From positions 178-64,177 of IMG/VR virus record IMGVR_UViG_3300031853_000039: a stretch of 64,000 nucleotides of DNA. One strand, 5' to 3'. Below the pieces are notes generated by a model that was given only the letters and a program-made list of their open reading frames with translations, searched no databases and was not told the origin of the DNA. Made by a program: the position numbers and the translations under genes. Of the stretch, positions 8,708 through 46,274 are shown piece by piece. The stretch's first letter is position 1; the number at the start of each line of letters is the position of its first letter. Source of the stretch: a virus (lineage: Duplodnaviria; Caudoviricetes).

Positions 8708-8715
8708 TTCATAGT

Positions 8716-8786: not shown

Positions 8787-8793
8787 GGGCTTT

Positions 8794-17054: not shown

Positions 17055-17552
17055 ATGTCAATAACAGCAGAACAAGCACTTGGTGCCGCTAAAACATATA
17101 CAAAACAAACAGCAGAGGGAATGGGCGCAGTAAAAGGTAAAAATGCGCAGTTGACATTACAAAGAACACAGCAAGATGATGGAGTACAATTAACATCAGA
17201 ATATTATGATGAGGAACAAGTAATTCACAGTTCTACATCATATTTGTATGATGGACCACAAGGACCAAAAGGTGAAACAGGTGCTACCGGACCACAAGGA
17301 CCAAAAGGTGATACCGGCGCAGACGGTAAAGATGGCAAGGACGGAGCAGATGGTGCAAAAGGTGATAAGGGCGACAAAGGCGATACCGGAAAAGGAATAA
17401 AATCAATTGACGCACCTGACCCGGATAAAGCAGAAATCGTTATAACGTATGACGATGATACAGAATCAGACCCTATTGAAATACCAACAGTAGAGGGACA
17501 TGATGAACCACTAACACCAGCACAGATAAATACGCTTATAGCGTTATTATGA
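17055..17552 (+). CDS. collagen-like fibre protein
   Basis: About 15 G-X-Y triplets (GPQGPKGETGATGPQGPKGDTG...). Confidence 0.85.
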   Translation: MSITAEQALGAAKTYTKQTAEGMGAVKGKNAQLTLQRTQQDDGVQLTSEYYDEEQVIHSSTSYLYDGPQGPKGETGATGPQGPKGDTGADGKDGKDGADGAKGDKGDKGDTGKGIKSIDAPDPDKAEIVITYDDDTESDPIEIPTVEGHDEPLTPAQINTLIALL

Positions 17553-17566
17553 AAGGAGAAATAACA

Positions 17567-18235
17567 ATGGGAAACTTTACAAGTTATGAAAATCAAACAG
17601 CGTTGATGACAGCAATTTCAAACAAGATTAAGGAAGCCGCAGGTGGTGGCGATAGTGCTTTTAATTTCAGAGGAAATAGCACGTTTGCAAACTTGCCAGA
17701 AGTGCTGACAACTACAATGGCAGGTTATGTTTACAACGTAACAGACGCTTTTACAACAGATTCACGTTTCGTAGAGGGCGCAGGAATTGAGTGCGAACCG
17801 GGTACGGATGTTATTGTAGCAGATATGTCAACATATGCAGAAGTAACACCGGAAGCAGGTGACAATCCATCAAGTGAAGGTTGGTACGAGATTGTAGATG
17901 GCAAGTATGTATTGAGTGAAGATACAGAAGTTGAAAGTGGAAAAACATACTATGCAAAAACTGTTGTTGTAAAGTTCAACTTGTTTAGTACGTCAGTAGA
18001 TATTAGTGGTATTTATGATATGATTGCTGATGAGTTTAGCACAGCAACAGCATACAACACAGGCGATGTAGTTATTTACAATGGCAAACTTTATAAGTTC
18101 AAAGCAGACCATGCCGCAGGTGCTTGGAGCAGTGCTGATGTAGATGAAAAAACAGTTGATGAACTTATTAGCGAAGCAGAGCCGAGTTCATTAACAACAG
18201 CACAGGTAAATGCACTTATTGCACTTCTTAACTGA
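17567..18235 (+). CDS. fibre segment with CBM5/12-like carbohydrate-binding module
   Basis: FSTATAYNTGDVVIYNGKLYKFKADHAAGAW motif. Confidence 0.65.
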   Translation: MGNFTSYENQTALMTAISNKIKEAAGGGDSAFNFRGNSTFANLPEVLTTTMAGYVYNVTDAFTTDSRFVEGAGIECEPGTDVIVADMSTYAEVTPEAGDNPSSEGWYEIVDGKYVLSEDTEVESGKTYYAKTVVVKFNLFSTSVDISGIYDMIADEFSTATAYNTGDVVIYNGKLYKFKADHAAGAWSSADVDEKTVDELISEAEPSSLTTAQVNALIALLN

Positions 18236-18249
18236 TAAGGAGAATTACA

Positions 18250-19869
18250 ATGAGCAATAAAAATTTTGTAGCATACGGAGATGCGGAAACTGTATTAACA
18301 GAATTTGCAAGTGACATAAAAGAAAAAGAATCCATATTCCGATTCTCTACAATGCCCACCGCATCATCAACAAACGTAGGGCAGATTATTCAGTATACAG
18401 GAGAAACAACGCAAGATTACACCAACGGCTACTTCTACAAATGCGTTGCAAAAGGAACAGACCCAGAAACATATGCATGGGAAGCACAGCCTGTTCAAGA
18501 AGGTGGTGGAAGTGGAAGTGATAAAGAAGATAAGTTCCGCTATTCTACGATGCCAGAGGCAAGTGCGACATATATTGATAAGGTTGTTCAATATATCGGA
18601 CAAACAAACAGCAATTACACGCAAGGATATTCGTATAAGGGTGGTTACGAAACAAAAGAATGTATAGGTGATGTTTCTGATTATGAAGGAACGGGAGATA
18701 GTAGAAACTATACTATATCCGCAAACAAACTTAATATGCAGACAATCCAACTCGGAGACACATATATAAAATATTTAGTTCCGATTATGAACGTAGGCGT
18801 TTTGAAGATAACAAAAGAACGCATTTTTGGAACAAGTGTAAATGATATGCGAACAGAGTTAGGTAGTACAGTTGGCGGAAAAGATTTATACGTTTCTAGT
18901 AGTTGGAATTCAATGATAATAGGAGATACAGTTGTTGAAGAAATTGACTTAACTCAATATAACGTATCTGAAATATATTTGTCATTTCATTTATCTGTTG
19001 GTAGTGGGAATAACACTGGTTTTGAAATATCTTCTATAGAAGCACCTAAATATGCGTGGCATGAAATTCCTGTGCAGAGTTTTTCATCTGATACTATTCA
19101 AAAAATAGAAGTAGAGGTAAATCCGACAACATTCAAGCCGACAAACGTGTATATAATGTACGAAGATGGCTTCGAAATCAAACCGTTTGCAACAGCAACA
19201 GATATAGAGATTGATGAAACATTAAAGCGTTATTATGCTGGTGCATTATCACTATCAGATATTCAACAAGTTTGGAGTATTGGTGACACAAGGGATATGT
19301 ACGTTGATACTATTCCTTACAAACAACCGCTTATGCCCGGACAAATGGGCGATGTGACTTTGCAAATGATGATTGTTGATTTCAATAAAAATACGCTTGA
19401 AACACCAACATCAGAGAGAACAAAAGCGTTATTGTGTTTACATTCAAAGTACAACTTCGGAAATATTGGTATGGATGATAGAGCCGCAATAAGTAGTGGA
19501 TATGGTTGGGAAAACTTGAAATTAAGAGCATGGTTAAACGATAATTTCAAAGATGCTATGCCTAGTGCTATGGTATCAAGAATTAAAAGTGTTCAAAGAA
19601 CATTCGGAAACACTACACTGTATGATGAGATATATGTATTGAGTAGAGAAGAAGCATACGGTGGGTATTCGTACTATGATTCAGATGTCAAGCGAATTAA
19701 AATTGGCTCTGGTGGTGGTACGGTTGCGTGGTGGTTATGCAACGAATCGGGCAATCCATCAGCAGGCACAGGATTGGTTTATCCACAATTTGTTAATCCA
19801 CAAGGACAGCAACAATGGGCAGGTGGTTACACAGGACGAAACGGGTGTATTCCTGCATTTTGTATATAA
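18250..19869 (+). CDS. fibre/adhesin with duplicated N-terminal module and DUF6273/C-type-lectin-like C-terminal domain
   Basis: Two copies of F-x-(F/Y)STMP-x-AS...QY-x-G-x-T...YT-x-GY-x-YK; C-terminal WENLKLRAWLN...YVLSREE...WWLCN...GCIPAFCI. Confidence 0.65.
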   Translation: MSNKNFVAYGDAETVLTEFASDIKEKESIFRFSTMPTASSTNVGQIIQYTGETTQDYTNGYFYKCVAKGTDPETYAWEAQPVQEGGGSGSDKEDKFRYSTMPEASATYIDKVVQYIGQTNSNYTQGYSYKGGYETKECIGDVSDYEGTGDSRNYTISANKLNMQTIQLGDTYIKYLVPIMNVGVLKITKERIFGTSVNDMRTELGSTVGGKDLYVSSSWNSMIIGDTVVEEIDLTQYNVSEIYLSFHLSVGSGNNTGFEISSIEAPKYAWHEIPVQSFSSDTIQKIEVEVNPTTFKPTNVYIMYEDGFEIKPFATATDIEIDETLKRYYAGALSLSDIQQVWSIGDTRDMYVDTIPYKQPLMPGQMGDVTLQMMIVDFNKNTLETPTSERTKALLCLHSKYNFGNIGMDDRAAISSGYGWENLKLRAWLNDNFKDAMPSAMVSRIKSVQRTFGNTTLYDEIYVLSREEAYGGYSYYDSDVKRIKIGSGGGTVAWWLCNESGNPSAGTGLVYPQFVNPQGQQQWAGGYTGRNGCIPAFCI

Positions 19870-19888
19870 AAGAAGGAGGTGTATATAA

Positions 19889-20407
19889 ATGTTATCAAGA
19901 GTAAATTTAGCATTAAAAGATGATGTGCCAGAGTTGGCAACGACCTCCGATATAAACGCAATAAAAGAGAGGTTTCATCCGAGCAATACAGCTAATGTGA
20001 ATATCGTGCCGTATGAGATATACGATGAAGATGAACACGTTGTTGGCGAGTGGAGAGAAACGATAGACGGGGTTAAGAAGAAGAAACCTGTGTATGAGAA
20101 AAGGTTAGTATATAATACTCCAACAACAGGAAGTACATCAATAACGGTAGGCACAGTTGAGAATACAGATACAAGGTTTATCCATGACGGTTTTTATATA
20201 AACAATAACGGAGATTTTGCCACTGTTGGTGCGTCTTTGGATTTGACGGCTGTTGGAAGAAATACAAGCGAAACCACCTATGCTTCTTACACGGCATTTA
20301 ATCCAAACGGTGAAATTAAGGTGTATTTTGGTTCTACTACGGCATCGTCAAAAACTATTGTTATAGTTCGTTACACCAAAACAACCGACCAATGGCAACC
20401 TGTATAA
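19889..20407 (+). CDS. fibre-associated protein
   Basis: Shares the EH-x-V-x-x-W-x-E-x-IDGV..KKPVYEK...RYTK-x-TD-x-WQ domain with the C-terminus of 20425. Confidence 0.6.
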   Translation: MLSRVNLALKDDVPELATTSDINAIKERFHPSNTANVNIVPYEIYDEDEHVVGEWRETIDGVKKKKPVYEKRLVYNTPTTGSTSITVGTVENTDTRFIHDGFYINNNGDFATVGASLDLTAVGRNTSETTYASYTAFNPNGEIKVYFGSTTASSKTIVIVRYTKTTDQWQPV

Positions 20408-20424
20408 GAAAGGAGAAAACATAA

Positions 20425-21384
20425 ATGTCAAAGAAATATATAAACGATTCACAAACAAGTGAAATAGTTAAATATATATCCGATAATATGAAACTTCCCT
20501 TGATTGGGGCAGGAGGAGGATTTGCACCGATTGGTACAATAAACTTCTTTGACGCAACAGTTGCCCCTCTTGGTTGGCTTGCTTGTGACGGAAGTACATA
20601 TAACATAGCAGACTATCCTGAATTGGCTACATACTATGCAAGCGTTCACGGTTCAGCAAATTTCTATGGTGGAGATGGCACTACTACGTTTGCCGTACCT
20701 GACTTGCAAGGAGAGTTTTTGAGAGGTAGTGGTACTAATAGTCATACTAATCAAGGCAATGGCGCTAATGTTGGTGTGCATCAAGATGCGTCATATATTA
20801 ACCCCATAAGTGAATCAGGATATTTGTATTCAGTAAAAACTGATGGCTCAGCCCAAAACTATGATAAAGTAGTGAGTGGAAATTCGAGAAATTATTTAGC
20901 ATCCCCACAAACTGATTTGGGTGGGCAAAAGGCAACCACTCGTCCGACCAACACATCATTCCTTATCTGTGTCAAAGCCACCCTATCAGATGCAGAAATA
21001 AACGCATTTAATGTATATACTCCAAGAGAACATCAAGTGGCTTGGTGGGAAGAAGAAATTGACGGTGTGTGGAAGAGGAAACCTGTGTATGAGAAGGAGA
21101 TAAATGGTATTACACCTGCGGCACAAGATAGTGATTTTGAAGTGATGAATATTACTTCACTATCTATTGAAAGGGTAGTACAAATGAGAGGTACTTTTGG
21201 CGATAATAGTGAAGGAATTGCCGAGATTAACTATTTAATTACAGATGCAGGTAAACAAGTAGGTGTATATTCATATATATACAATAATGTGTTACATATG
21301 ACTACTAAAAACAGAAATAGAGCAGAGCAATATACTATTCAATTACGCTACACCAAATCAACCGATGATTGGCAAACTTCTTGA
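20425..21384 (+). CDS. phage tail-collar domain fibre protein
   Basis: PIGTINFF...PLGWLACDGSTY...YPELA...FAVPDLQGEFLRG...TRPTNTSFLICVK. Confidence 0.85.
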   Translation: MSKKYINDSQTSEIVKYISDNMKLPLIGAGGGFAPIGTINFFDATVAPLGWLACDGSTYNIADYPELATYYASVHGSANFYGGDGTTTFAVPDLQGEFLRGSGTNSHTNQGNGANVGVHQDASYINPISESGYLYSVKTDGSAQNYDKVVSGNSRNYLASPQTDLGGQKATTRPTNTSFLICVKATLSDAEINAFNVYTPREHQVAWWEEEIDGVWKRKPVYEKEINGITPAAQDSDFEVMNITSLSIERVVQMRGTFGDNSEGIAEINYLITDAGKQVGVYSYIYNNVLHMTTKNRNRAEQYTIQLRYTKSTDDWQTS

Positions 21385-22802: not shown

Positions 22803-23297
22803 ATGGATAAAGTAGCAGAGTCACTTCAATCAGATAATGGTTGGATTATAGCCATTCTGATTGTAATTATAATTGTCTTACTAATAATAGGCGCAAGACA
22901 TGGACTTGTAAAAATAAAGACAACAAAATTACAAGTAGGCATTGATGCAAGTGATAGGGTGCATCAAATAATAAAACATCAAAAAGATTGGGTTAAAATA
23001 GCAGTAAGTGCTTTTAATCGTAAAATACCGAAGCATGATGATTATAACGAATTTAGAGGAATGTTTATTCTCGAAAAATGCTTAAATGAGATAAATGATT
23101 GGATTGATTTGAACCACATAGAGGATAAAAAATCATATATAGAATTAAAGCAAGAGCTTATATGGAATTTACTTTTATCCTACACCGAGAAAAAAGAGTT
23201 ACGGTCAGAGAAGTTTAAGAAAGACGTTTATGATTATGTAGAATATATCATAAAAAATCTTGTAAGAATTCGTAAACAATATAATGACGAAGAGTAG
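22803..23297 (+). CDS. N-terminally anchored membrane protein preceding the holin
   Basis: WIIAILIVIIIVLLIIG TM helix. Confidence 0.7.
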   Translation: MDKVAESLQSDNGWIIAILIVIIIVLLIIGARHGLVKIKTTKLQVGIDASDRVHQIIKHQKDWVKIAVSAFNRKIPKHDDYNEFRGMFILEKCLNEINDWIDLNHIEDKKSYIELKQELIWNLLLSYTEKKELRSEKFKKDVYDYVEYIIKNLVRIRKQYNDEE

Positions 23298-23310
23298 GAG
23301 GTGAGATACA

Positions 23311-23532
23311 ATGAGAATGAGTAACAAAGTTTACAATGTATTGAAGTATATCGCATTGGTAGCACTGCCAGCACTTGGGGCATTCTATTTCGCACTTTCG
23401 TCTATATGGGGACTTCCATACGGAGAGCAGATAGTAGGTACAATAGCGGCAATAGACACGCTTTTAGGAGCATTGCTTGGTATTAGTACAAAGAAGTATA
23501 ATAAAGAATTAGATGATGCTTCAGATATTTAA
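23311..23532 (+). CDS. holin (Dp-1-like) with Met-Arg-Met dual start
   Basis: MSNKVYNVLKYIALVALPALGAFY..IWGLPYGEQIVGTIAAIDTLLGALLGIS. Confidence 0.88.
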   Translation: MRMSNKVYNVLKYIALVALPALGAFYFALSSIWGLPYGEQIVGTIAAIDTLLGALLGISTKKYNKELDDASDI

Positions 23533-24357: not shown

Positions 24358-25314
24358 ATGTCAGCACCAGCAAACAACGGAGTGCCGCCGACAAGTATGC
24401 AGGCACTCAACTATGCAACAGATTATGGTAGGGCACTTTCACAGAAGTTCCCATACGTGCTTAATTTTGGAAAACTTTATAGCACACCGAACAACGGAAG
24501 ATTTCGTTGGATTAACGCAAAAACAATCGAGATTCCGAGCATTTCAACAACAGGTCGTGTAAACGCTAATCGTGATAGTATTTCACTTGCACAACGTAAC
24601 TTTGACAATAGTTGGGAGCCGAAAACTCTTACAAACGAGAGAAAGTGGTCAACACTTGTTCATCCGAAAGACATTGACCAGACTAACATGGTTACAACTA
24701 TTGCTAATATTACACAGGTATTCAATGAGGAGCATAAGTTCCCCGAGATGGATGCTTACTGTGTATCGAAGATTTACACAGACTGGCTTGCAACTACTAA
24801 TACTGATACAGGAGTTGCTCATACAGCAGATACCACAGTGCTTACAGCAGAGAATATTCTTTCTGTATTTGATAAGCTTATGCTTGAGATGGACAACAGA
24901 CGTGTACCACCGAATGGCAGAATCTTGTATGTAACTAACGAGATTTCTTATATGCTCAAGAACGCAGAGAAGATTAGTCGTTCAATGGACATTACGTCTG
25001 GACCGAACAAGATTGATAGACGTATCAACAGACTTGAGGAAGTTGAGGTTATTCCGGTTCCTGCAACACTTATGAAAACAGCTTATGACTTCACAAGTGA
25101 TTGGGCAATTGACCCGTCAGCAGACCAGATTAACATGATGCTCATTCATCCTCTTGCAGTAATCACACCGGTATCATACGAGTTTAGTAAACTTGATGCA
25201 CCGAGTGCTGGTTCAGAAGGAAAGTACATCTATTACGAGGAGTCATTCGAGGATGTATTTATTTTGAACAAGAAGAGTGACGCAATTCAGTTTAACATCA
25301 CCGAGCATGAGTGA
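24358..25314 (+). CDS. major capsid protein
   Basis: 318 aa after the scaffold; high-expression codon bias; TIEIPSI, HPKDIDQTN, FPEMDAY, RILYVT motifs. Confidence 0.88.
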   Translation: MSAPANNGVPPTSMQALNYATDYGRALSQKFPYVLNFGKLYSTPNNGRFRWINAKTIEIPSISTTGRVNANRDSISLAQRNFDNSWEPKTLTNERKWSTLVHPKDIDQTNMVTTIANITQVFNEEHKFPEMDAYCVSKIYTDWLATTNTDTGVAHTADTTVLTAENILSVFDKLMLEMDNRRVPPNGRILYVTNEISYMLKNAEKISRSMDITSGPNKIDRRINRLEEVEVIPVPATLMKTAYDFTSDWAIDPSADQINMMLIHPLAVITPVSYEFSKLDAPSAGSEGKYIYYEESFEDVFILNKKSDAIQFNITEHE

Positions 25315-27403: not shown

Positions 27404-27943
27404 ATGGCAGTAAATCAGTTCAATCTTCCAGAGCATCAGAGAGCAGAGCGTAAATTGCTTATCACGGTTGCAGAGTGGAACGAGGGCACAGGTTCGAGTG
27501 CTACACAGGAACGTGAGATTCTTGGACGTAGAACAGAGGACTCAAGTATTGAGTACAATACAGACACCAATACTTCTACTGATATTCTTGGTATCAATTA
27601 CACAGATGTAAACAAGACACAGCCACAACAGGATTTCGACCCGTATATGATTCTTGGAGGTTCAAAGCTTGGTGCGAAGCTTAACGATATTAGAAAGCGT
27701 AACGCACTTTCAGAGCTTTCACAGTTTACACTTTATATCATCACTGCTTATGTAGGTGACGCTACTAATGGTTACGAAGCAGAGAAGCATGAGGGTTGTA
27801 CTATTCAGTATAATTCACTTGGTGGTGATACTAATGTCAATATGCCGATTTCAGTATTCTTCTCAAACAAGATTACAAACGGTACGGTTGACAAGCTTAC
27901 TGATGACTTTACATTCACACCTGATGTAAACATTGGTGGTTGA
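27404..27943 (+). CDS. major tail protein
   Basis: 179 aa, high-expression codons, position. Confidence 0.75.
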   Translation: MAVNQFNLPEHQRAERKLLITVAEWNEGTGSSATQEREILGRRTEDSSIEYNTDTNTSTDILGINYTDVNKTQPQQDFDPYMILGGSKLGAKLNDIRKRNALSELSQFTLYIITAYVGDATNGYEAEKHEGCTIQYNSLGGDTNVNMPISVFFSNKITNGTVDKLTDDFTFTPDVNIGG

Positions 27944-29100: not shown

Positions 29101-32100
29101 ATGGCGGCATCAGTAGATGGTGATATTCGTTTATCCGTAGGACTTGATACATCGAGTATAGAGAGTCAGTTAAAAAGTCTTGGTATTTCTATGTCAAACA
29201 GCGTTGCAAAGTCGATGGACGCTAGTTCAAATAAAATCTTTGATAAATTAAAAGCGGGCGTTTCCAAAATCACCCGTTCATTTTCAATTACACCTGAAGT
29301 AGATGATAGTGCATTAAAGCGTACTGAAAGCAGTGTTGAGAGAGTAACTGCAAAACAAAAAGAACTAGGTAATGTATCTCAAGAAGCTGGAGATAAAATG
29401 GCTAAAGGTGTTGATAAAGCAACACGTGCTGACAGCAACTTGCAAATACAAATTGACCGTACAATAGCAAGAATTCAAGAGTTACAGAAAAAACAAGCGG
29501 CTCTTGGAGCTACAACTGTTCAATCAAAAGAATATACTGCACTTGAAAAAGAAATGAATAAACTCGGTTCAAGAACCGATGAAATAGTAAGTAGATTAAA
29601 TCATCTTAATAGCAATGAAGTATTACAAGTAAAATATCGTGGAGAAATAGAAGCACTTAATAAAGAGTTCGATGAAACAGTTACTAAAATTGAAAAAATA
29701 GAAGAAGCTATGGGTAGATTAAGGTCTAAAGGAATGGGACCAACACCCGGTACACAAACAGAAGCTTATGCAAAGCTTGGACAAGAGATAGAGTTTCAAG
29801 GACGAAAACTTGATTTACTATATGAAAAAGAAGCACAAGCAGGACAACAAGCACAAAAGACAGGTTCTCAAATGAGAGCTAGTCATCAATCAGCAGGTAA
29901 TAGTGCAAAGAAAGCGGCATCAAGTATATCATCTCATTTTGGCAATGCTTTCAAAAAGATACGTAATCTTGGCGGCAAAATGTTCAATGGTATAAAAGGT
30001 TTGTTTAGTAGGATAAAAGGCAAAGCAAAAGATACCGCAAATGATATGGATAAATCATTCAAAAGAGGATTTAGAAATATCTTAAAATATGCACTTGGTA
30101 TTCGTTCATTTTACTTGCTATTTAGAAAGATACGAGCGGCGGCTAAAGAGTCGTTAAAAGCGATGGCAACACAGTTTCCAGAAGTAAATGCTCAAGTATC
30201 AGCTCTTAAAAATTCATTCATACAATTAAAAGGTAGTGTAGGTACAATGGTACAGCCATTATTACAAGCATTAGCACCTGCATTAACTACTATTATCAAC
30301 TTGTTTAGTCAAGCATTGCAAGTGGTAGGAAGTTTCTTTGCACTACTTACAGGTCAGAAGTTTATATACAAAGCTAAAAAAGGAACAACAAGCTTTGCAA
30401 ATGCTCAAGATGAAAGTACAAAAGCAACTAAAGCAAATACAAAAGCACTTGAAGAAAATCAAAAACAATTAGGTCATTATGATAAATTGAATATTATCGA
30501 CCAAGATAATAAAGGAGGTTCAGGCGCTGGTGGCGGAGGCGGAGCTGGTGGTGGTGCTGGAGAAATGCAATTTGAGAAAGCACCAATTCCTGATTGGGTA
30601 AATGACTTTGCAAAGCGTATTAAAGAAGCTTGGAAGAAAGCAGACTTTACAGAGATAGGTGCTATTATCGGGCAAAAGTTACGTGATGCACTTAATAAAA
30701 TACCATGGAAAAAAATACAAACTACGGCAGAAAAAGTAGGTAAATCATTAGGTACTCTAATAGCAGGTTTTATAAAGACACCAGGTTTAGCAAAATCAAT
30801 TGGTAATGCTATAGGACAAGCACTTAATACAGTATTGCTTGGAATACAAAACTTCATTAAAAATGTACCTTGGTATAAGTTTGGAGAGTTTATTGCAACT
30901 GGTTTATCGAGTGCTTTATTAGCTAAAGATAAAAACGGTACTACATTGATTGGTAATATAGCAAAGACATTTGTATCTATTGTAAATGCCGCAATAGATA
31001 CGTTTCTTGGATTTGTTAAAAAATTAGAGTGGAAAAAAATAGGAAAAGAAATATCAAAATGGTTGAATTGGGCTATAAAGAATATTAAAATAGAGGAGTT
31101 TGCAGAAGCCATTGGTAGACTTATAAATGGTCTTGTAGACTTGATGTATGAGATATTCAGTAATGCTGATACTTGGGTTTCACTTGGTACTAAAATTGCA
31201 AACGGAATCAATAAAGCATTTAAGACTATTGATTGGGCAAAGATGGGTAAAACTATTTCTGATGGAATTAAAGGAATTTTAACCACAATAGAAACAGCTT
31301 TATCTAAACTTGATTGGGAAGCAATTGGAAGAGCAATTGGAGATTTTCTTGGTAATATTGATTGGCTTGGAATACTTGGTAAAGCCATTAGTGTAATGGC
31401 GAAAGCATTTTGGGGACTATTTAAGTCAATATTTTTATCGCCTCCAAAGAGTGTAGAAGAAGCAATAGGTAAAGGCATTTTAGCTATATTTACTGGAATA
31501 TTTGTATTCAAAAAATTTGCGCCATTGGTTTCAACAGTGAAAGGACTTTTCGGTAAAATACTCGGTAAAGGAGTTGCACAAGCCGCCGCAACAGGTGCAG
31601 TGACTGCAGGCGCACAAGTAGCAGGTGAAGGAGTTGCTGAAGCAGTTGGAGCGGGAGTAGCAAGCGGTAAACCTGGTCTTATTGCTAAAATTGGTTCAAC
31701 ATTGAAAGCGGCTATAACAGCTCATCCTGTGATTGCGGCAGTAGCCGCCGCTGGAGCTGTGGTAGCAGGAGTTGCTATAAATGCTATAAATAAAATGATT
31801 GATGAAGAAATAGAGGCACGTGAATACGCATCAAAAGTTGCACATGAAATTGGTAAACGTGAAGTAGAAAATGTCACAAAAACACTTGACGGATTACAAA
31901 AGACACTTGACGGTGCAAAAAAAGTTATTAAAAACTTCAATAAAGCATTAAAAGACATTGATAGTCCTTCAGATAAATCAGGCAATATAAAGAACATATT
32001 GAAAGACTATTTAGAGCTTTCAAAGAAAACACATTTAACCGCAGTTGAGACTGAAACGCTTAAAAAGCGTACTGAACAATTGATTGAAAAATATCCTACG

Positions 32101-33474
32101 TTAAGTAAATATGTCGATAAAAATACAGGCTTATTAAAGCTTAATGAGAAACAATTAAAGAGTATAATAGAGCAAGAAAAACGACAAGCAAAAGCAATTG
32201 TGGCACAACAATCAGCAGAAGCACTTTATAATAAAAAATCAGAGCTTGCAGAAGCAATTAAAAAAGCAAAAACCGCTATGGACGAAGCTCAATCAAAGTT
32301 TGATGCTCACTATAAAAAACTACAAGAGATTGGACAACAGCAAGGCAAAAATAGTGAAGCATATCAAAAACAATTAAAGATAACCGGTGAAGTTGCAAAT
32401 GCTTTGACTAACGCCCGATTAAAATATGCCGCCTTAACTGAACAAGAAAAAAAGAATAACGAAGCCATAAAAACTGCTAATAATTTGATGGAGCTTGCAA
32501 AAGTAAAAGCATCGACTCTTGCAAAAACTAATGATAAATTAAAAGAGTCATTAAAACAAATGGGTATAAAAGCAAGTGACCAAAAAAAGATTATGAGTGA
32601 ATTAAAAACGGCACTTGAAAAAGGTGAGATTTCTTGGAAACAATACAAGAGTATTGTAGATAAGAATTACAAATCAGTAGGTGCATTGAAAGCCGCTCTT
32701 GATAAGACAGGAAAAACAAAAGTATCACCTACACTCAATGTAAAAGTGACAGGTAAAGAGGAAATGAATCGTGTGCAGAAGTATTTTGCTACATTTAAGA
32801 ATGGAAAGAAAACATACACACAAATATTAAAAATACAAGCGCAGTTTTCAGACCCTGCTGTTAAAAAAGCTTTTGCTTCAGGGTATTTTAGCCCATCTGA
32901 TTATGTGATGACAGTACGTAAAAAAGCATCAGGTGGTATTTATACAGGAAGTGGTTGGCATAATGTTGAAGGATATGCAAGCGGTGGAACACCTAAAAGC
33001 GGACAGTTCTTTATGGCACGTGAGAATGGCATTCCAGAGCTTGTAGGTACTATTAGAAATCATACTGCTGTAATGAATAATAATCAGATTGTTGCTAGTG
33101 TTGCAAACGGCGTATATCGAGCTGTAGCGGGTGTTGCAAGTGCTATACTACCTTATGTACGTTCACAGACTCATGCAATGAATTGGCTAGCACAAAACGG
33201 CTTACAGCTACCTGATATTCCAAAGATAACACTTGGAAATATAATACCAAGTACAAGTGAATTTCTTAATGCTTCAACAGGCACAACAACGAATAATATA
33301 AACAATGGAATTGATTATGATATGTTGGTACAAGCATTTAGAGAAGCACAAAGTAAAGAGCCAATAGTAGTACAAATGCCTAACGGAAAAGTTCTTGCAG
33401 AAGCAGTGTGGGACGAAGAAGAAAAGAGATACAAGCAAACAAGAAGTAGCACATTAAGACCAAAGTTTGCATAA
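29101..33474 (+). CDS. tape measure protein
   Basis: 1457 aa, helical Ala/Gly/Ile-rich, W-periodic repeats, YASGG..F-x-ARE-x-G-x-PELVG. Confidence 0.92.
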   Translation: MAASVDGDIRLSVGLDTSSIESQLKSLGISMSNSVAKSMDASSNKIFDKLKAGVSKITRSFSITPEVDDSALKRTESSVERVTAKQKELGNVSQEAGDKMAKGVDKATRADSNLQIQIDRTIARIQELQKKQAALGATTVQSKEYTALEKEMNKLGSRTDEIVSRLNHLNSNEVLQVKYRGEIEALNKEFDETVTKIEKIEEAMGRLRSKGMGPTPGTQTEAYAKLGQEIEFQGRKLDLLYEKEAQAGQQAQKTGSQMRASHQSAGNSAKKAASSISSHFGNAFKKIRNLGGKMFNGIKGLFSRIKGKAKDTANDMDKSFKRGFRNILKYALGIRSFYLLFRKIRAAAKESLKAMATQFPEVNAQVSALKNSFIQLKGSVGTMVQPLLQALAPALTTIINLFSQALQVVGSFFALLTGQKFIYKAKKGTTSFANAQDESTKATKANTKALEENQKQLGHYDKLNIIDQDNKGGSGAGGGGGAGGGAGEMQFEKAPIPDWVNDFAKRIKEAWKKADFTEIGAIIGQKLRDALNKIPWKKIQTTAEKVGKSLGTLIAGFIKTPGLAKSIGNAIGQALNTVLLGIQNFIKNVPWYKFGEFIATGLSSALLAKDKNGTTLIGNIAKTFVSIVNAAIDTFLGFVKKLEWKKIGKEISKWLNWAIKNIKIEEFAEAIGRLINGLVDLMYEIFSNADTWVSLGTKIANGINKAFKTIDWAKMGKTISDGIKGILTTIETALSKLDWEAIGRAIGDFLGNIDWLGILGKAISVMAKAFWGLFKSIFLSPPKSVEEAIGKGILAIFTGIFVFKKFAPLVSTVKGLFGKILGKGVAQAAATGAVTAGAQVAGEGVAEAVGAGVASGKPGLIAKIGSTLKAAITAHPVIAAVAAAGAVVAGVAINAINKMIDEEIEAREYASKVAHEIGKREVENVTKTLDGLQKTLDGAKKVIKNFNKALKDIDSPSDKSGNIKNILKDYLELSKKTHLTAVETETLKKRTEQLIEKYPTLSKYVDKNTGLLKLNEKQLKSIIEQEKRQAKAIVAQQSAEALYNKKSELAEAIKKAKTAMDEAQSKFDAHYKKLQEIGQQQGKNSEAYQKQLKITGEVANALTNARLKYAALTEQEKKNNEAIKTANNLMELAKVKASTLAKTNDKLKESLKQMGIKASDQKKIMSELKTALEKGEISWKQYKSIVDKNYKSVGALKAALDKTGKTKVSPTLNVKVTGKEEMNRVQKYFATFKNGKKTYTQILKIQAQFSDPAVKKAFASGYFSPSDYVMTVRKKASGGIYTGSGWHNVEGYASGGTPKSGQFFMARENGIPELVGTIRNHTAVMNNNQIVASVANGVYRAVAGVASAILPYVRSQTHAMNWLAQNGLQLPDIPKITLGNIIPSTSEFLNASTGTTTNNINNGIDYDMLVQAFREAQSKEPIVVQMPNGKVLAEAVWDEEEKRYKQTRSSTLRPKFA

Positions 33475-38318: not shown

Positions 38319-39170
38319 ATGGCAACGACAACCGTAACAGTAAACGTAGCAGAAAGTCAAAACTACCTTGCTACGAGTAGAACAATAAGCGTAGAGAGTG
38401 AAGAACCTGTAACTGTAGATACATGGGTTCCTAAAACATGGAATGGGTATACTCCATTTAATGGTGAATATATCTGGATCGATGGGGATAATATTTATTA
38501 TTCAAGTAGTTCCACTCAATATGTATTAGATAAAGCTACATCAACTTGGACACCAAAGACATGGAATGGGCTTACTAGTTTTACTGGTAGTTATATCTGG
38601 ACAGATGGTGATAATATTTATTATTCCGATTCAGGCTTCGGCAGCACCAATAAACAATACGTATTAAACAAATCTACTTCTACATGGAATCCTAAAACGT
38701 GGAATTATACAAATATAAATAGTGGCAAAGTTATTTGGACAGATAACAATAATATTTATTATTCAAATGGTAGCACTCAATACGTTCTAAATAAACAAAC
38801 ATCTACTTGGGCACCTAAAACTTGGGAAGGGTATACTTCTATTAGCGGCGATCTAATTTGGACAAATGGTACTAATTATTATTATTCGTCATACAGCAAT
38901 CAATATATGCTAGATAAATCTTCAACCTGGGTAAAAGTAACTTGGTCTGGATATACTCCTGAAATGGGTAGCTATATCTGGACGGATGGAAATACTGCTT
39001 ACTATTCAGATAATGATAAACAATATTTATTAAAGTATAATTATTATACATGGGAAGAAAAATCTTGGGGAGGTTTTACTCCTGAAAATGGTCATTACAT
39101 CTGGACAGATGGAGAGAATATTTATTATTCTTTCTCAAACAAACAATATGTATTAAAAAAAGCTACATAA
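38319..39170 (+). CDS. six-repeat Trp/Tyr-rich beta-propeller-like receptor-binding protein
   Basis: Six ~41-aa repeats W-x-PKTW-x-G...IWTDG-x-NIYYS...QYVL-x-K. Confidence 0.75.
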   Translation: MATTTVTVNVAESQNYLATSRTISVESEEPVTVDTWVPKTWNGYTPFNGEYIWIDGDNIYYSSSSTQYVLDKATSTWTPKTWNGLTSFTGSYIWTDGDNIYYSDSGFGSTNKQYVLNKSTSTWNPKTWNYTNINSGKVIWTDNNNIYYSNGSTQYVLNKQTSTWAPKTWEGYTSISGDLIWTNGTNYYYSSYSNQYMLDKSSTWVKVTWSGYTPEMGSYIWTDGNTAYYSDNDKQYLLKYNYYTWEEKSWGGFTPENGHYIWTDGENIYYSFSNKQYVLKKAT

Positions 39171-39225: not shown

Positions 39226-39429
39226 ATGATGAAACTTTATGATTTTACAAAACCTGAATTAGATTTACTTCTTGCATTATGTAATTTTACTCCAGATGAA
39301 GAAGAATATTTTAAGTTAAGGTCAAAAGCAAAGTCAAATGTTCAAATAGCTATGGAAATGCACATATCTGAAGCAAAAGTTTCAGTATTAGCAAGAAAGG
39401 TTAAAAACAAGATAAAACGTATATTATAA
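39226..39429 (+). CDS. LuxR/sigma-region-4-like HTH regulator
   Basis: FTPDEEEYFKLRSKAKSNVQIAMEMHISEAKVSVLARKVK. Confidence 0.75.
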   Translation: MMKLYDFTKPELDLLLALCNFTPDEEEYFKLRSKAKSNVQIAMEMHISEAKVSVLARKVKNKIKRIL

Positions 39430-39452
39430 ATATATGTTTTTCCTCCTTCGAT

Positions 39453-39494
39453 AAAAGAAACGTACAATTTTTGTATAAGTTGTACGTTTCTTTT
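39453..39494. repeat. 15-bp perfect inverted repeat (terminator and/or operator)
   Basis: AAAAGAAACGTACAA-12 nt-TTGTACGTTTCTTTT, followed by a T run and TATAAT at 39500-39505. Confidence 0.85.
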
Positions 39495-39530
39495 TTATTT
39501 ATAATTAAATACATAAAGGAGGTACTTCTT

Positions 39531-39644
39531 ATGGATATTCAAAACATTCTAAAGCTAATAATGGAAGAACATAATTGTTCACCTGTTATGGCTCTACTAA
39601 TTTATTCCAATATGATACAAAACATTAAAAAAGAGGTAGCTTGA
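39531..39644 (+). CDS. 37-aa hypothetical protein (not in track)
   Basis: AAGGAGG RBS, MDIQNILKLIMEEHNCSPVMALLIYSNM... Confidence 0.55.
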   Translation: MDIQNILKLIMEEHNCSPVMALLIYSNMIQNIKKEVA

Positions 39645-39645
39645 T

Positions 39646-40023
39646 ATGTACGTTTATTACAATCCAAATCCTAAAATGAATCACATCGGAGATTGCACAG
39701 TAAGAGCAATATCAAAACTTACGGGGCATGATTGGGAAGATACATACATTGAATTATGTGTGCAAGGGTTAGATATGTGTGATATGCCTTCATCAAACGC
39801 AGTATGGGGAGCATATTTATACAAAAATGGATATAGAAGAAATGTAATTCCTAATACTTGTCCTGATTGTTATACAGTAAGAGATTTTTGCACCGAACAT
39901 CCTGAAGGTCAATATTTACTTGCCACAGGCACTCATGTTATTGCAGTAGAAGAAGGCAGTTATTATGACACGTGGGATAGCGGTGATGAAATACCAATTT
40001 ATTTTTGGCGAAAGGAGATGTAA
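39646..40023 (+). CDS. papain-fold (C39/transglutaminase-like) Cys-His-Asp enzyme
   Basis: GDCTVRAIS (Cys), THVIAV (His), YYDTWDS (Asp). Confidence 0.6.
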   Translation: MYVYYNPNPKMNHIGDCTVRAISKLTGHDWEDTYIELCVQGLDMCDMPSSNAVWGAYLYKNGYRRNVIPNTCPDCYTVRDFCTEHPEGQYLLATGTHVIAVEEGSYYDTWDSGDEIPIYFWRKEM

Positions 40024-40026
40024 ACA

Positions 40027-40509
40027 ATGGCAATTTTTAACAGTGGTTATCCTATGAGTTATACTCCACAGGTGTACCAACCACCAATTCAAACATCACA
40101 GGCAGTTCAACCAAACATCAATCAACAACCACAACAGCAGTATTCAGATATGATTTTTGTACCTGGAAAAGAGGCGGCGAAAGTATATCCTGTAGCAAGA
40201 GGAAGTAGCGTAACATTATTTGACAGTGAGGGAGATAAGTTTTATGTAAAGACTGTAGATAATAGTGGTATGCCACAAAAATTAAGAACATTTAGCTATG
40301 TAGAGATAATGGATGAAGAACCACACGGAATGTCAAGTTTAGCTTCACCTGAAATTGATACAAGTCAATTTGTAACAAGACAAGAAATGAATACTCTTGT
40401 AAAGACAGTAGATACACTTGCAGATAAAGTACAAAATATTCAGATGCCAACAATGATAGAAGAAAAGCCTAGAGCTAATACAACAAAGAAGGTGAAAGAA
40501 AATGAATAG
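40027..40509 (+). CDS. Gln/Pro-rich N-terminal low-complexity protein
   Basis: YQPPIQTSQAVQPNINQQPQQQ; FVPGKEAAKVYPVARG..LFDSE..FYVKTVD. Confidence 0.8.
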   Translation: MAIFNSGYPMSYTPQVYQPPIQTSQAVQPNINQQPQQQYSDMIFVPGKEAAKVYPVARGSSVTLFDSEGDKFYVKTVDNSGMPQKLRTFSYVEIMDEEPHGMSSLASPEIDTSQFVTRQEMNTLVKTVDTLADKVQNIQMPTMIEEKPRANTTKKVKENE

Positions 40510-40720
40510 TATAATGCAAGGTCAAAATAAAAATAATTTATCAAGTATGTTTCAAAGTTTCAAAAATAATCCAATGGGTTTTCTTATGCAAAGAAAACTA
40601 AACATTCCACAAGAGCTTGGTAATGACCCTCAAGGCATTATTCAGCATCTACTTAATACAGGGCAAATGACTCAACAGCAATTAAATCAATTACAATCAT
40701 TTGCTCAAAAACTTCACTAA
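40502..40720 (+). CDS. Gln/Asn/Met-rich small protein
   Basis: FKNNPMGFLMQRK..NDPQGIIQHLLNTGQMTQQQLNQLQ. Confidence 0.8.
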   Translation: MNSIMQGQNKNNLSSMFQSFKNNPMGFLMQRKLNIPQELGNDPQGIIQHLLNTGQMTQQQLNQLQSFAQKLH

Positions 40721-40729
40721 TTCCTTTGA

Positions 40730-40752
40730 ATAAACTTTTGCGCAGAGTTTAT
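40730..40752 (+). promoter_or_regulatory. hairpin upstream of the Gly/Cys-rich gene
   Basis: ATAAACTTT-TGCGC-AGAGTTTAT. Confidence 0.5.
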
Positions 40753-40780
40753 AAATAAAAAACGAAGGAGGGAAAATGTT

Positions 40781-41635
40781 ATGAGTTTAACAGATTCCAA
40801 TGGTGGACTTTCAGCCGCAGATATTGCCGCAGTAATGGGTAGTAATAATGGCGGTTGGGGGTTCGGTAACAACGGTGACTGGTGGGTAATTCTCTTCTTG
40901 TTCGCACTCATGGGCAACGGCTTTGGCGGTGGCTTCGGATGGGGCGGAGGCGGATATGCTGCAGAAGGCTCTATGATTTATCCTTGGATGAATCAAGCTA
41001 ACATTACAACAGAAGGTTTCCAGAATCAGTTACTGAATGACAACATTACAAGCATACGTGATGGAGTCAGTGCTTTGTCCACGCAGTTGTGTAACACGGG
41101 CAACGATATTCAGATGACACTTTGCAACGGATTTGCAGGAGTAGAACAAGGTGCTAACACACGTCAGATGGCTAATATGCAGACAGCGTTTAGTCAGCAG
41201 ACAGCTATGAATCAAGGCTTTAACAATGTTCAGTCACAGTTAGCGCAGTGTTGCTGTGATAACAAACTTGCAAGCGCAGATTTGAAGTACACTATTGCAA
41301 CCGAGAATTGCGCTGACAGACAAGCACTTAATGAAGGTGTTAGAGATATCATAGCAAATCAGACAGCAGGCACACAGCGTATTCTTGACCAGCTTTGCAA
41401 TGATAAGATTGATGCAAAGAATGATGAGATAGCACAGTTAAGACAGCAGTTGAACATGGCTTCTCTTCGTGAGTCACAGATAGCACAGAACGCTTTTATC
41501 TCACAAGGATTTGCAAATGAGGTAGACCAGTTGTATGACCGTCTGAATAACTGCCCAGTAGGAACTGTACCGGTTTACGGAAAACAGCCTATCTTCACTT
41601 GCAATCAGAACTATGGTTGTGGTTGCATGGGATAA
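40781..41635 (+). CDS. Gly-rich, hydrophobic-segment, coiled-coil, Cys-cluster protein (coat/matrix-like)
   Basis: WWVILFLFALMGNGFGGGFGWGGGG, long Q/N-rich heptads, AQCCCD, C-terminal CNQNYGCGC. Confidence 0.85.
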   Translation: MSLTDSNGGLSAADIAAVMGSNNGGWGFGNNGDWWVILFLFALMGNGFGGGFGWGGGGYAAEGSMIYPWMNQANITTEGFQNQLLNDNITSIRDGVSALSTQLCNTGNDIQMTLCNGFAGVEQGANTRQMANMQTAFSQQTAMNQGFNNVQSQLAQCCCDNKLASADLKYTIATENCADRQALNEGVRDIIANQTAGTQRILDQLCNDKIDAKNDEIAQLRQQLNMASLRESQIAQNAFISQGFANEVDQLYDRLNNCPVGTVPVYGKQPIFTCNQNYGCGCMG

Positions 41636-41647
41636 GGAGGTGACAAT

Positions 41648-42100
41648 ATGGCAGAGTTTACCAATAATCCTATTCAAACAGTACAGCCAAATCAGGTAGT
41701 AGTTCTCAACACAAGTATTCCTTGTGCAAAAGGCTACGTAGTACACAGAAACGAATCAGGAATTGTAACATTGCGTGGTATTGTCAATAATCCTACTTGT
41801 TGTTTTGCGAGATATCAGATAACTTTCAATGGTAATATAGCAGTGCCAACAGGAGGTACAGTTGGACCTATTAGTGTCGCACTTGCTATCAGTGGAGAGC
41901 CGATACTTACAAGCAGAGCAATAGTAACACCTGCGGCAGTAGAGGAGTATGGAAATGTTACAAGTACAGCTATAATAACAGTTCCTAGAGGATGTTGCTT
42001 CAATGTAGCAGTTGAGAACACATCAGAAGCTCCAGCAGGTGGAACAGCACCAGCAATCAATGTTCAAAATGCTAACTTGGTTGTTCAGAGAATTGCATAA
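41648..42100 (+). CDS. BclA-CTD/TNF-like beta-sandwich protein
   Basis: All-beta pattern YQITFNGNIAVP..ISVALAISGEP..NVTSTAIITVP..NANLVVQRIA; CC pairs. Confidence 0.65.
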   Translation: MAEFTNNPIQTVQPNQVVVLNTSIPCAKGYVVHRNESGIVTLRGIVNNPTCCFARYQITFNGNIAVPTGGTVGPISVALAISGEPILTSRAIVTPAAVEEYGNVTSTAIITVPRGCCFNVAVENTSEAPAGGTAPAINVQNANLVVQRIA

Positions 42101-42114
42101 AGGAGGAAAATGCT

Positions 42115-42705
42115 ATGAAGGATTTAGAGCGTATAACAGAGCTGATTGAGAATGAAATCAGACCGCTTACCAGCAAGCAGGATATTTCTCCTAATGAGCT
42201 GAAGAATCTTGGTGAGGCGGTTGACATTCTCAAAGATGTTGAAACTATCAAAGCTATGAAACAGTCAGAACAAGAAGGTTACTCTTTCAGAGGTAGCTAT
42301 GATGACGGCATGAGCAATCGTTATCCGTATATGCGTTCATATGAAGGTGTACAATCTATGAATAGCTATGCTAATCAAAGATACCCTATGAGCATGGAAG
42401 GGCAGTCAATGACAGGCAATTCTATGGGTATGCAGTCAATGGACGGGCAGTCTATGGATAGCTATGGTCGTAGAGGACGAGATGGCGATGGTGATGGCAG
42501 ATATAGCGAGCGTAGAGGACGTGATGCAATGGGCAGATACACAAGTCGAGATAGTTATGGACGAGGTGAAAGCTATGAGAGAGGTTATAGCGGTCACAGT
42601 GAGCGTCAATATATGATTGACCGACTTGAAGATATGGCTGATGATGCACGTACCGAACGTGAAAGAAGTATCATAGAGCGTTGCATAGCAAAGCTTGAGA
42701 GATAA
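42115..42705 (+). CDS. protein with S/M/G/Y and RGRD low-complexity repeats
   Basis: SMEGQSM/SMDGQSM, YGRRGRDGDGDGRYSERRGRDAMGRYTSRD. Confidence 0.85.
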   Translation: MKDLERITELIENEIRPLTSKQDISPNELKNLGEAVDILKDVETIKAMKQSEQEGYSFRGSYDDGMSNRYPYMRSYEGVQSMNSYANQRYPMSMEGQSMTGNSMGMQSMDGQSMDSYGRRGRDGDGDGRYSERRGRDAMGRYTSRDSYGRGESYERGYSGHSERQYMIDRLEDMADDARTERERSIIERCIAKLER

Positions 42706-42721
42706 CCTACACTACTCAATG

Positions 42722-42745
42722 GGGCAGGGCGTAAAAACCTTGCCC
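42722..42745 (+). terminator. GC-rich hairpin (lacks a U tract)
   Basis: GGGCAGGG-CGTAAAAA-CCTTGCCC. Confidence 0.5.
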
Positions 42746-42766
42746 CTACTCCTTGGAGGTAGAAAA

Positions 42767-43132
42767 ATGAATTTACAAGTAATCAGAAATACCATAGCAG
42801 ATTTAGAAAACGCTGAAAACACCTTTGAAAACTGCTCTAAACTAGCAAGTCTATATATTATTATGTCTGAAGCAGAAAAATCGAAAATAGACACGAAATC
42901 GAGCGGGATAGAGAGTGAATTAAATGACATTCTACCTGCATATAGACATTATGTAGACGCAAAGCGTAATTATCAATTAAATGGCACAAGCGAGGAGCAA
43001 ACTGTAAAAGCTCTTGGTTTTGTGTGTCAAGAAATCTATGAATTCATACAAGCTCTTTATAGCAGTACAGATATGCCAGAGGAGCGAACTCACATCAGAA
43101 ATCTAATATCTAAACTTCAAGAAATGGCGTAA
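42767..43132 (+). CDS. helical hypothetical protein, last gene of the 39.2-43.1 kb cluster
   Basis: Start moved to 42767 after GGAGGT. Confidence 0.7.
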   Translation: MNLQVIRNTIADLENAENTFENCSKLASLYIIMSEAEKSKIDTKSSGIESELNDILPAYRHYVDAKRNYQLNGTSEEQTVKALGFVCQEIYEFIQALYSSTDMPEERTHIRNLISKLQEMA

Positions 43133-43176: not shown

Positions 43177-43205
43177 TTGACAAACATTATATAACGTGTT
43201 ATCAT
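43177..43205 (+). promoter_or_regulatory. class-1 promoter (copy 2)
   Basis: TTGACA-AACATTATATAACGTGT-TATCAT. Confidence 0.85.
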
Positions 43206-43326
43206 GTACTTGTCGATGAGAGATGAGTACATGATTGAACGAGCTTAGCGCCGTTTGAGAAATGGAATGAATCAAACATCTCACAGCAACTACAAACTCA
43301 CAGAACGAAAGGAAAAGGTGATGATT

Positions 43327-45419: not shown

Positions 45420-46274
45420 ATGATTGGTATATATGGTATAAAAAATAACTTCAATGAAAATATTTATATAGGACAGGCAATAGACATAGAAAACAGATGG
45501 AAGTGTCATAAAAGTGCTCTAAACAATAACAAACATCAAAATTCAAGACTTCAAAATGCTTGGAATAAATATGGTAAAGATAATTTTGTATTTATAGTTT
45601 TAGACCAATGTGAAGAGAGCGAGTTGACGAAACGAGAACAATATTGGATTGATTATTATGGGGGTATAAATTCTTCTAAAACTTACAATTTCAAAGAAGC
45701 AGGAAGTAAAGGAAGATTATCAAATGCTACAAAACAAAAAATAAGTCAAAAACAAAAAGGAGTACCTGAACCTCCTGGAAGAAAAGTATCAAAAGAAGGT
45801 AGATTAAGTTTATCGAAAGCACATAAAGGAATTAGACCTTCTTCACAAACAAGATTAAAAATGTCACAATCTCAAAAAGGTAGAAAACAAACAGAAGAAA
45901 CTAAAATAAAGATAGGACAAAAGAATAAACAGAGATATATAGATAATCCTCAATTAAGAGATACAATTTCAAAAAGAATGAAAGGACGTAAGTTATCCGT
46001 CGAAACAAAAGAAAAAATAGGAGAAAGCAGTAGAGGAAGAAAATATGGGGAGGAGACTTCAAAAAAACATTCTGAAAGTTTGAAGAAAGCGTATAAAGAA
46101 GGTCGAAGAAAAACTGTGAAAATAACAGTAAATGATATAACTAAAACACAAACCGAGTGGGCTAAATTATTAGATGTTTCACATACTTCAATAATATATC
46201 AAAGAAAAAAAGGTACAGCAGAGTTGTATATTAGAAAAATAATAGAAAAAAAGAATATTCAAATTAGTAATTGA
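45420..46274 (+). mobile_element. free-standing GIY-YIG homing endonuclease with NUMOD3-like repeats
   Basis: MIGIYGI..IYIGQA..RWKCH..LQNAWNKYG..REQYWID..YN; repeats of (S/T)-x-ETK-x-K(I/M)S-x-x-x-KG. Confidence 0.9.

Follow-up and report, generated by a model that had tools for sequence, protein, structure and literature searches.

The DNA analysed here (hereafter the window) is a stretch of 64,000 nucleotides (nt), positions 178 to 64,177 of the IMG/VR virus record IMGVR_UViG_3300031853_000039. Nearly the whole of a phage genome of 64,177 bp (CheckV completeness, 95%) is thereby covered, with every gene on the + strand. The source is a bovine gut or rumen metagenome; the sequencing runs that contain this DNA are bovine and other gut metagenomes, and no RNA run was among those listed. 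The tail genes of this phage are followed by a cassette of genes, designated A to I, which ends just ahead of the promoter of the next (replication) unit (Table 1). The initial annotation of the window had described a conserved operon here with its own helix-turn-helix regulator, bounded by the tail genes and that promoter; all of the genes that it named were found on the + strand, and both boundaries lay where it had placed them. Genes B to I are tightly packed, with intergenic distances of −8 to 61 nt. Two of the products, the helical Cys-rich protein F and the stand-alone C1q/TNF jelly-roll protein G, are central to the interpretation that we tentatively put forward below, in which a movable phage cassette would encode a stalk-and-head assembly.

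The helix-turn-helix assignment was borne out for A, which scored 24.2 bits against Pfam GerE (PF00196), above the curated cut-off of 23.5. A also matched TIGR02937 (E 1e-5) at its C-terminal end, which corresponds to sigma-70 region 4, and homologues of A gave Sigma70_r4 matches; at 13 genome loci, and at many loci from viromes, such a homologue was encoded within the cassette or adjoining it. The inverted repeat and promoter element reported behind A were likewise recovered, the former as a stem of 18 bp with a T run behind it, and hence an intrinsic terminator, and the latter as a TATAAT sequence at 39500-39505. In the window, the terminator region holds GTACA, TGTAT and TGTAC words spaced by about 10 bp. 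A terminator with phased short repeats behind gene A was present at many loci, the words being TGCAA/TGTACA/TGAACA in locus L002 and CAC-N8 arrays in L030, L031 and L033. This arrangement would fit an activator-dependent promoter served by A, with A as the presumed ligand of the repeats. The small open reading frame (ORF) B also exists, its start being corrected to ATG 39531, and a small ORF resembling it was seen in locus L060. A hairpin in the intergenic region between E and F was no better than those of shuffled sequences (z −0.5).

To characterize G, a model was built with AlphaFold 2 (AF2) from a 108-sequence alignment, and a compact ten-strand jelly roll was obtained (predicted local distance difference test [pLDDT], 97; predicted template modelling score [pTM], 0.88). 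It superseded a single-sequence AF2 model (pLDDT 56), which had returned generic beta-sandwich matches only. The nearest solved structures to G were the C-terminal domains (CTDs) of F-BclA (9h38; VIA Z 16.5, root-mean-square deviation [rmsd] 1.9 Å over 125 residues) and BclA (1wck; Z 15.2), together with ExsFA (7r1m; Z 13.8), and the Foldseek E was 4e-7; the resemblance to the BclA CTD proposed from the sequence thus held in the predicted structure. C1q and TNF entries matched G with Z of 10-14 (EDA and C1q at 13-14), and phage receptor-binding knobs (9k09, 8ke9, 1yq5 and 3rwn) with Z of about 9-12.6. At the sequence level, a language-model lead of 0.88-0.90 was obtained for G; neither a Pfam match at E up to 1 (including BclA_C, PF18573, and C1q, PF00386) nor an NCBIfam match was found. 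G starts straight at its first strand, with no leader or collagen-like stalk, and the fold suggests that it would form trimers. The family is large: clustering at 90% identity gave at least 8000 clusters, and clustering at 50% gave 1016, of which the 150 listed are 100-196 amino acids (aa) long and include no fusion to a larger protein. The nearest models in BFVD were stand-alone proteins of 130-145 aa from gut viral records labelled Siphoviridae, Podoviridae and Myoviridae sp.

F, the protein annotated as a Gly/Cys-rich coiled coil, is a hydrophobic, helical protein rich in Gly, Trp and Cys, and is paired with G without exception, distant variants included. It consists of an N-terminal motif, Gly/Trp-rich flanks (16 G in residues 20-60) around an 11-residue hydrophobic core (WWVILFLFALM), about 200 helical residues and a C-terminal tail; its 11 cysteines include CCC at 157-159 and the GCGC of a CPxP...GCGC tail. 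All of 18 homologues had in common an N-terminal motif in two variants, the Gly-rich flanks, a W-flanked hydrophobic core of 10-14 residues, the CCC, the motifs ADLKYT..ENCADR and TRDII..Q..GTQ.ILD.LC.DKI, and the CPxP...GCGC tail. A match of F to Vibrio phage 12VC501 covered just 29% of F and was treated as a coiled-coil match.

The cassette proteins were further searched against Pfam, NCBIfam, PADLOC and PHROGs. No family was found for B to I in Pfam, NCBIfam or PADLOC, whereas C, D, E, F and G each matched one PHROG without a function (E 4e-7 to 1.8e-43). None of the 10 proteins matched a PADLOC model, and thus no known anti-phage defence family was detected. Profile searches of the sequences of solved structures (Protein Data Bank, PDB) with C, D, F and G gave only coiled-coil noise. 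A signal peptide or lipobox was not found in any cassette protein, nor was a match to the exosporium leader TIGR03720 or to Collagen. No functional name for these proteins was given by Pfam, PHROGs, NCBIfam or the records viewed, and our literature searches found no paper on the cassette.

C had been annotated as a papain-fold enzyme. In 15 aligned sequences, N6, N8, D16, C17, H97 and D108 were invariant, so that Cys, His and Asp stand in the order of papain-like C39 peptidases, with a polar residue upstream. The fold did not gain the backing of a hidden Markov model (HMM): no Pfam match was obtained for the 15 members, and a search of the whole genome with PF03412 (C39) found no match at E up to 10. 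The papain fold is thus a candidate assignment, drawn from the motif together with the language-model leads from Atlas, namely DUF261 (32% of cluster members) and Peptidase_C39 (11%). In Bacillus Tsamsa-like, Geobacillus GBK2 and Lak phages, a homologue of C occurs on its own.

The remaining proteins agreed with their earlier descriptions. The Q/P-rich protein is D, with 10 Q and 6 P in residues 1-40 and a conserved beta-type domain (WVQGEAGAK...FYxKS.D.SGMP); the Q/N-rich protein is E (Q 19%, N 14%). H is the low-complexity protein described as having RGRD/SM repeats, its middle part being rich in R, G, S, Y and M; 394 homologues were found, none of them named, and it follows G in most loci. 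The helical protein at the end of the unit is I, with ATG 42767 as its true start.

The core genes had also been said to share the codon style of the capsid gene. As a measure, the preference for C- or G-ending codons was scored for seven amino acids that have two codons each. The capsid gene had a score of 0.45 and the tail-tube gene one of 0.46; F (0.46), G (0.50) and H (0.49) were indeed at this level, but C (0.15), D (0.29) and E (0.33) were not, the genome background being about 0.2-0.3. Since the codon counts are small, these scores point only weakly to an abundance of F, G and H.

In order to determine how widely the cassette is distributed, one genome per species was scanned, and 32 loci were obtained, at least 25 of which keep C-D-E-F-G, often plus A, H and I. 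The same order, C-D-E-F-G(-H-I) with A, was observed in Butyrivibrio phage Ceridwen and in about 15 virome loci, more often than chance would give; in all, the order was seen again in over 50 of the loci fetched. The scan loci came from Lachnospiraceae, Ruminococcus, Oscillospiraceae, Faecousia, Acutalibacteraceae and other gut or rumen metagenome-assembled genomes (MAGs), and nine carriers were counted among 399 Clostridia species genomes. Ceridwen, in which G is 73% identical to that of the window and C-D-E-F-G lies behind the endolysin gene, was the only cultured carrier in the phage collection. Among isolates, Vescimonas fastidiosa MM35 carries the cassette in its pMM35_01 prophage, where tail, holin and amidase genes are followed by C-D-E-F-G-H-I and then by host genes. 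The cassette is common to thousands of gut and rumen phages, and its recurring gene order, together with A and the terminator, upholds the description of a conserved operon with its own regulator.

Three positions of the cassette were distinguished. In the window and its relatives, tail genes precede it and the helicase gene follows. At most other loci it is placed behind a holin or endolysin gene, or at a prophage end. In a third, Faecousia-type arrangement it is embedded in the head module (TerL, portal, minor head protein, [C-A-D-F-G-H], scaffold, capsid protein). When 33 virome loci were fetched through the helicase gene, the full cassette was present in 11, and loci L060, L061 and L065 had a variant cassette without C and with a divergent G. 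L048-L050 had no cassette, despite sharing the helicase (62%), Dit (50-54%) and a tail protein. From the three positions and the absence from close relatives it follows that the cassette is accessory, relocatable cargo and not core machinery, in agreement with the earlier view that it stands outside the core virion, lysis and replication gene sets. In the C-less variant of L060, two helical His/Tyr/Cys-rich proteins of 74 and 164 aa (5609-6324) occupy the place where H would be, and the genes downstream of G are thus swappable.

Conservation of the cassette reaches the level of replication enzymes. In six of 11 relatives, the identity of G equalled or exceeded that of the SNF2 helicase, as in L039 (79% vs 66%) and L058 (78% vs 57%). 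Among phages of the Faecousia type, the identities of G (43-48%) and C (51-56%) were comparable to that of TerL (42-46%), and the portal (24-27%) and minor head protein (22-23%) fell far below G and C.

The explanation that we favour, tentatively and at somewhat less than an even chance, is that the cassette is a relocatable, self-regulated accessory unit of phages of gut and rumen Clostridia, expressed late, whose products form an abundant stalk-and-head assembly outside the core virion, probably for recognition or adhesion at or after lysis. A would be made by read-through from the late tail genes and would bind the phased TGTAC-type words behind its terminator, turning on B to I. The hydrophobic segment of F could serve for anchoring or bundling, with its Cys-stapled helices giving an oligomeric stalk, and trimers of G would be the C1q-type recognition heads. 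D, E and H, with their low-complexity tails and small folded parts, may be linkers or holdases, and C may trim or cross-link one of the components. Because no component has an export signal, the assembly would be built inside the cell and exposed at lysis; once released, it could serve for adhesion or recognition, for instance by masking receptors on debris or by holding material on surfaces.

Several observations weigh against this explanation. G lacks an export signal, and any surface role of it therefore requires lysis. The hydrophobic core of F, at only 11-14 residues, is below the Kyte-Doolittle transmembrane threshold and has no clear positive-inside flank. C cannot be an obligatory processing enzyme, since it is missing in one cassette variant. 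Phage fibres, too, typically have coiled-coil stalks and C1q/TNF knobs (Z 9-12.6), the cassette always lies within or adjoining late morphogenesis genes, and an optional appendage of the virion fits the data almost as well.

Such an appendage would consist of F as a coiled-coil fibre and G as its C1q/TNF knob, similar to a head fibre, whisker or side fibre, and would be a dispensable adhesin with D, E, H or I as adaptors or chaperones; we regard it as possible, though on the whole unlikely. It agrees with the constant co-orientation of the cassette with the late head, tail or lysis genes that it adjoins or interrupts, with the capsid-like codons of F, G and H, and with the match of G to the TNF-like knobs of phage receptor-binding proteins, to which Atlas adds the Sf6 tail-needle-knob cluster at 0.90; dispensability among relatives is compatible with a decoration. 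The same cassette, however, was found beside unrelated portals and head proteins (the low identities given above, or no match at all) and in phages of three labelled morphotypes, so that the docking site of an appendage would have to be generic. The cassette's own regulator and terminator, its place at the end of a prophage, past the lysis genes, and the hydrophobic segment in F also speak against an appendage.

A further explanation, which we consider decidedly unlikely, is that the cassette makes a self-assembling product which is not part of the virion, either rosettes of stalk and head or a Cys- and Gln/Tyr-rich gel or matrix. It would be produced very late and at capsid-like levels, be released with the burst, and alter the persistence, clumping or sticking of the progeny in the gut. 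If this were true, it would be a previously undescribed phage product, and the equivalent, among viruses of bacteria, of very-late occlusion or 'sporesilk'-type matrices.

A host-directed or competitive role, such as superinfection exclusion, counter-defence or a bacteriocin-like lysis product processed by a C39-like peptidase, appears improbable. The moron-like slot at a prophage end, the dedicated regulator and the accessory distribution among relatives would suit it, and so would the Peptidase_C39 lead for C and one N-terminal variant of F (LSxxDIxxVxG-), which is spaced like a double-glycine leader. The lack of PADLOC matches, the lack of a C39 HMM match for C, the late orientation and the high-expression codons do not, and the conservation of the cassette is on a par with that of replication enzymes, unlike that of fast-evolving defence or anti-defence genes. 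The specific proposal that C cleaves a double-glycine leader on F was rejected: the GG is not conserved, GN or RN often being found at the end of the leader-like motif, half of the homologues have a Pro-rich variant instead, and the motif-bearing F variant persists in the cassette without C.

The frequent location of the cassette immediately behind holin or endolysin genes raises the question of an accessory lysis module, in which the cassette would provide a third-step device beside holin and endolysin, with F as an i-spanin-type membrane coiled coil or C as a wall peptidase. The N-terminal hydrophobic segment, coiled coil and conserved Cys of F could be read in this way, and eight common peptidoglycan-hydrolase Pfam families were unmatched in the genome of the window. 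This role is nevertheless more improbable still. A plausible endolysin of the window phage is encoded elsewhere, at 12950-13732: at residues 177-250, in the C-terminal part, its product matched the peptidoglycan-binding region of endolysins with solved structures (phiKZ gp144 and SleB), and across 95% of its length it shares 35% identity with the protein annotated as the endolysin of Clostridium phage Villandry. Its N-terminal catalytic part gave no match to the eight families. The holin gene is 16 kb away from the cassette, no spanin-like signal peptide or lipobox occurs in the cassette proteins, the hosts are mostly monoderm, a lipoprotein partner is absent, and G is left without a role. Canonical endolysins are moreover frequent in phages with the cassette. 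In relatives, the terS/terL/portal area likewise contains GH25 or Amidase_3 genes, and among the complete relatives Amidase_3 was present only in the one without the cassette. The idea that the cassette replaces a missing endolysin was rejected in view of the 12950-13732 candidate and of CHAP, GH25 or amidase genes in other carriers. The Dp-1-type holin of the window (23311-23532; Pfam E 4e-28) is preceded by a family-less helical protein of 164 aa with an N-terminal transmembrane segment (22803-23297), and the pair (22803-23532, +) sits between the minor head protein and scaffold genes, the very slot where Faecousia-type phages have the cassette; the window phage thus has scattered lysis genes.

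The initial annotation had itself proposed a proteinaceous shell, either altering the surface of the host spore or forming an occlusion-body-like matrix, here taken to be Cys-cross-linked, that protects virions or phage DNA. The exosporium proteins F-BclA, BclA and ExsFA/BxpB are the nearest solved structures to G, the partners of G are Cys-rich and of low complexity, F, G and H appear abundant, and small TNF/C1q proteins with self-assembling partners are documented as builders of extracellular fibres and matrices, including spore-associated ones with C1q tips (PMC12357932, PMC13111695). Trimers of ExsF dock the N-terminal leader peptides of fibre proteins (PMC12357932), and by analogy this suggests that G might dock the conserved N-termini of F or D. 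The link to spores was not sustained, however. The genus Butyrivibrio is non-spore-forming (PMC6249431), and a restriction to spore-forming hosts, which had been set beforehand as the test, is refuted at least in part by the presence of C-D-E-F-G in Ceridwen, whose host is Butyrivibrio fibrisolvens and which has been observed in lytic growth only (PMC7372960). Of five carrier MAGs, three (G001, G002 and G005) had neither Spo0A_C nor SpoIVA, one had Spo0A only and one had both, such absences being subject to the incompleteness and binning of MAGs. The exosporium leader and BclA_C HMMs were unmatched as well. These findings bear on the spore half of the proposal; a protective matrix would be conceivable, and the proposal as a whole is very unlikely.

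Table 1. Positions of the cassette genes and of other features of the window
Feature	Position	Strand	Description
Cassette A to I	39226-43132	+	
A	39226-39429	+	67-aa LuxR/GerE-type (sigma-70 region 4-like) helix-turn-helix regulator
Terminator hairpin behind A	39453-39494	+	18-bp stem, T run
B	39531-39644	+	37-aa ORF, start behind AAGGAGG; poorly conserved
C	39646-40023	+	125-aa Cys-His-Asp enzyme-like protein; phrog_3754 (PHROG E 2.8e-30)
D	40027-40509	+	Q/Y/P-rich N-terminal tail, small conserved domain, then helix; phrog_21718
E	40502-40720	+	72-aa Q/N/M-rich protein; phrog_22984; 8-nt overlap with D
F	40781-41635	+	284 aa, helical, 11 Cys; phrog_16490
G	41648-42100	+	150-aa stand-alone C1q/TNF jelly-roll protein; phrog_20016
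H	42115-42705	+	Helix, R/G/S/Y/M/D-rich low-complexity middle, helix
I	42767-43132	+	121-aa helical protein, last gene of the unit; GGAGG 8 nt upstream of ATG
Promoter of next (replication) unit, outside cassette	43177-43205	+	Sigma-70-like; TTGACA-17-TATCAT, TG extension, 11/12 matches
SNF2 helicase	~43.6-45.4 kb	+	Replication/recombination genes then run to 63.5 kb
Clamp-loader and pol III subunits	1.2-4 kb	+	
TerS	12367-12783	+	
Probable endolysin	12950-13732	+	260 aa, between terS and terL
terL	13732-15045	+	
Head and tail genes	13 to 39 kb	+	
Capsid gene	24358-25314	+	
Tail-tube candidate	27404-27943	+	
Tape measure	29101-33474	+	
Tail proteins	last ends at 39170	+	

Some other features of the genome were recorded. 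Directly ahead of the cassette, the gene at 38319-39170 (+) encodes a 283-aa protein made up of six repeats of about 42 aa (W.PKTW.G...IWTDG.NIYYS...QYVL.K), which is probably a beta-propeller or lectin-like receptor-binding protein; it had no PHROG match, and its sole Pfam matches were unconvincing. A fibre-like cluster at 17055-21384 (+), between the portal and minor-head genes and away from the tail genes, holds a collagen-like protein, a CBM5/12 protein, a 539-aa DUF6273 protein, a 172-aa ORF and a tail-collar fibre protein. Behind the cassette, a hairpin with a 14-bp stem starts at the −10 element of the strong promoter of the replication unit (43177-43240, +); the 141-nt region folds at −38.4 kcal/mol (z −4.3, with no shuffle as good), and it may be an operator or leader structure for that unit. 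The SNF2 helicase is split directly after the DE(I/V)HK motif in L060 (7071-9978), L004, L061 and L065, and the insertion resembles an intein in that it starts with Cys and carries a TxxH block; the helicase of the window is unsplit, with a GIY-YIG homing endonuclease (45420-46274) encoded behind it. Ahead of the packaging genes, a protein with a zeta-toxin-family kinase domain (Pfam E 1.8e-17) is encoded at 10508-11620 (+), DUF6011 zinc-ribbon proteins at 4675-5241 and 9233-9469, and tRNA-Gln at 8715-8787.

The cassette occupies 6-10% of many gut and rumen phage genomes. Solving its role would explain a major part of the dark matter of the gut virome and could show how the phages of anaerobes handle adhesion, persistence and release. 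Two cultured systems allow tests, namely Ceridwen on Butyrivibrio fibrisolvens DSM 3071 and the pMM35_01 prophage of Vescimonas fastidiosa MM35.

Compared with known systems, G has the same jelly roll over its full length as the CTDs of BclA and F-BclA (1WCK, 9H38; rmsd of about 2 Å over 124-125 residues), which form the Bacillus exosporium nap and the tip fibrillum of F-ENA. Unlike these, it stands alone, without collagen stalk, exosporium leader or a match to the BclA_C or C1q HMMs, shares only 15-18% identity with them, and is encoded in phages whose hosts need not sporulate. ExsFA/BxpB (ExsF; 7R1M, 8D02, 9H3D), the TNF-like exosporium anchor of the B. cereus group, is stand-alone like G, of similar size and of the same fold (Z 13.8, Foldseek TM 0.72); G differs in that it shows no sequence relationship to ExsFA/BxpB, no leader motif was detected, and its partner F is helical and Cys-rich rather than collagen. 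Phage fibres with TNF-like knobs (Sf6, 3RWN; PRD1 P5, 1YQ5; cyanophage A4, 9K09; A-1(L), 8KE9) likewise combine a helical stalk with a head and are late gene products (Z 8.8-12.6), but there a single polypeptide forms both stalk and knob, as an essential or fixed part of the virion, whereas the cassette uses two genes, is movable, dispensable and separately regulated, and has a stalk with a hydrophobic segment. With phage morons and lysogenic-conversion cassettes at the ends of late operons, the cassette has in common its own promoter, terminator and regulator, a variable position, and presence or absence among relatives. It is, however, far larger (7-9 genes) and far more conserved than morons, uses high-expression codons, and occurs also inside head modules and in Ceridwen, for which only lytic growth has been seen (PMC7372960).

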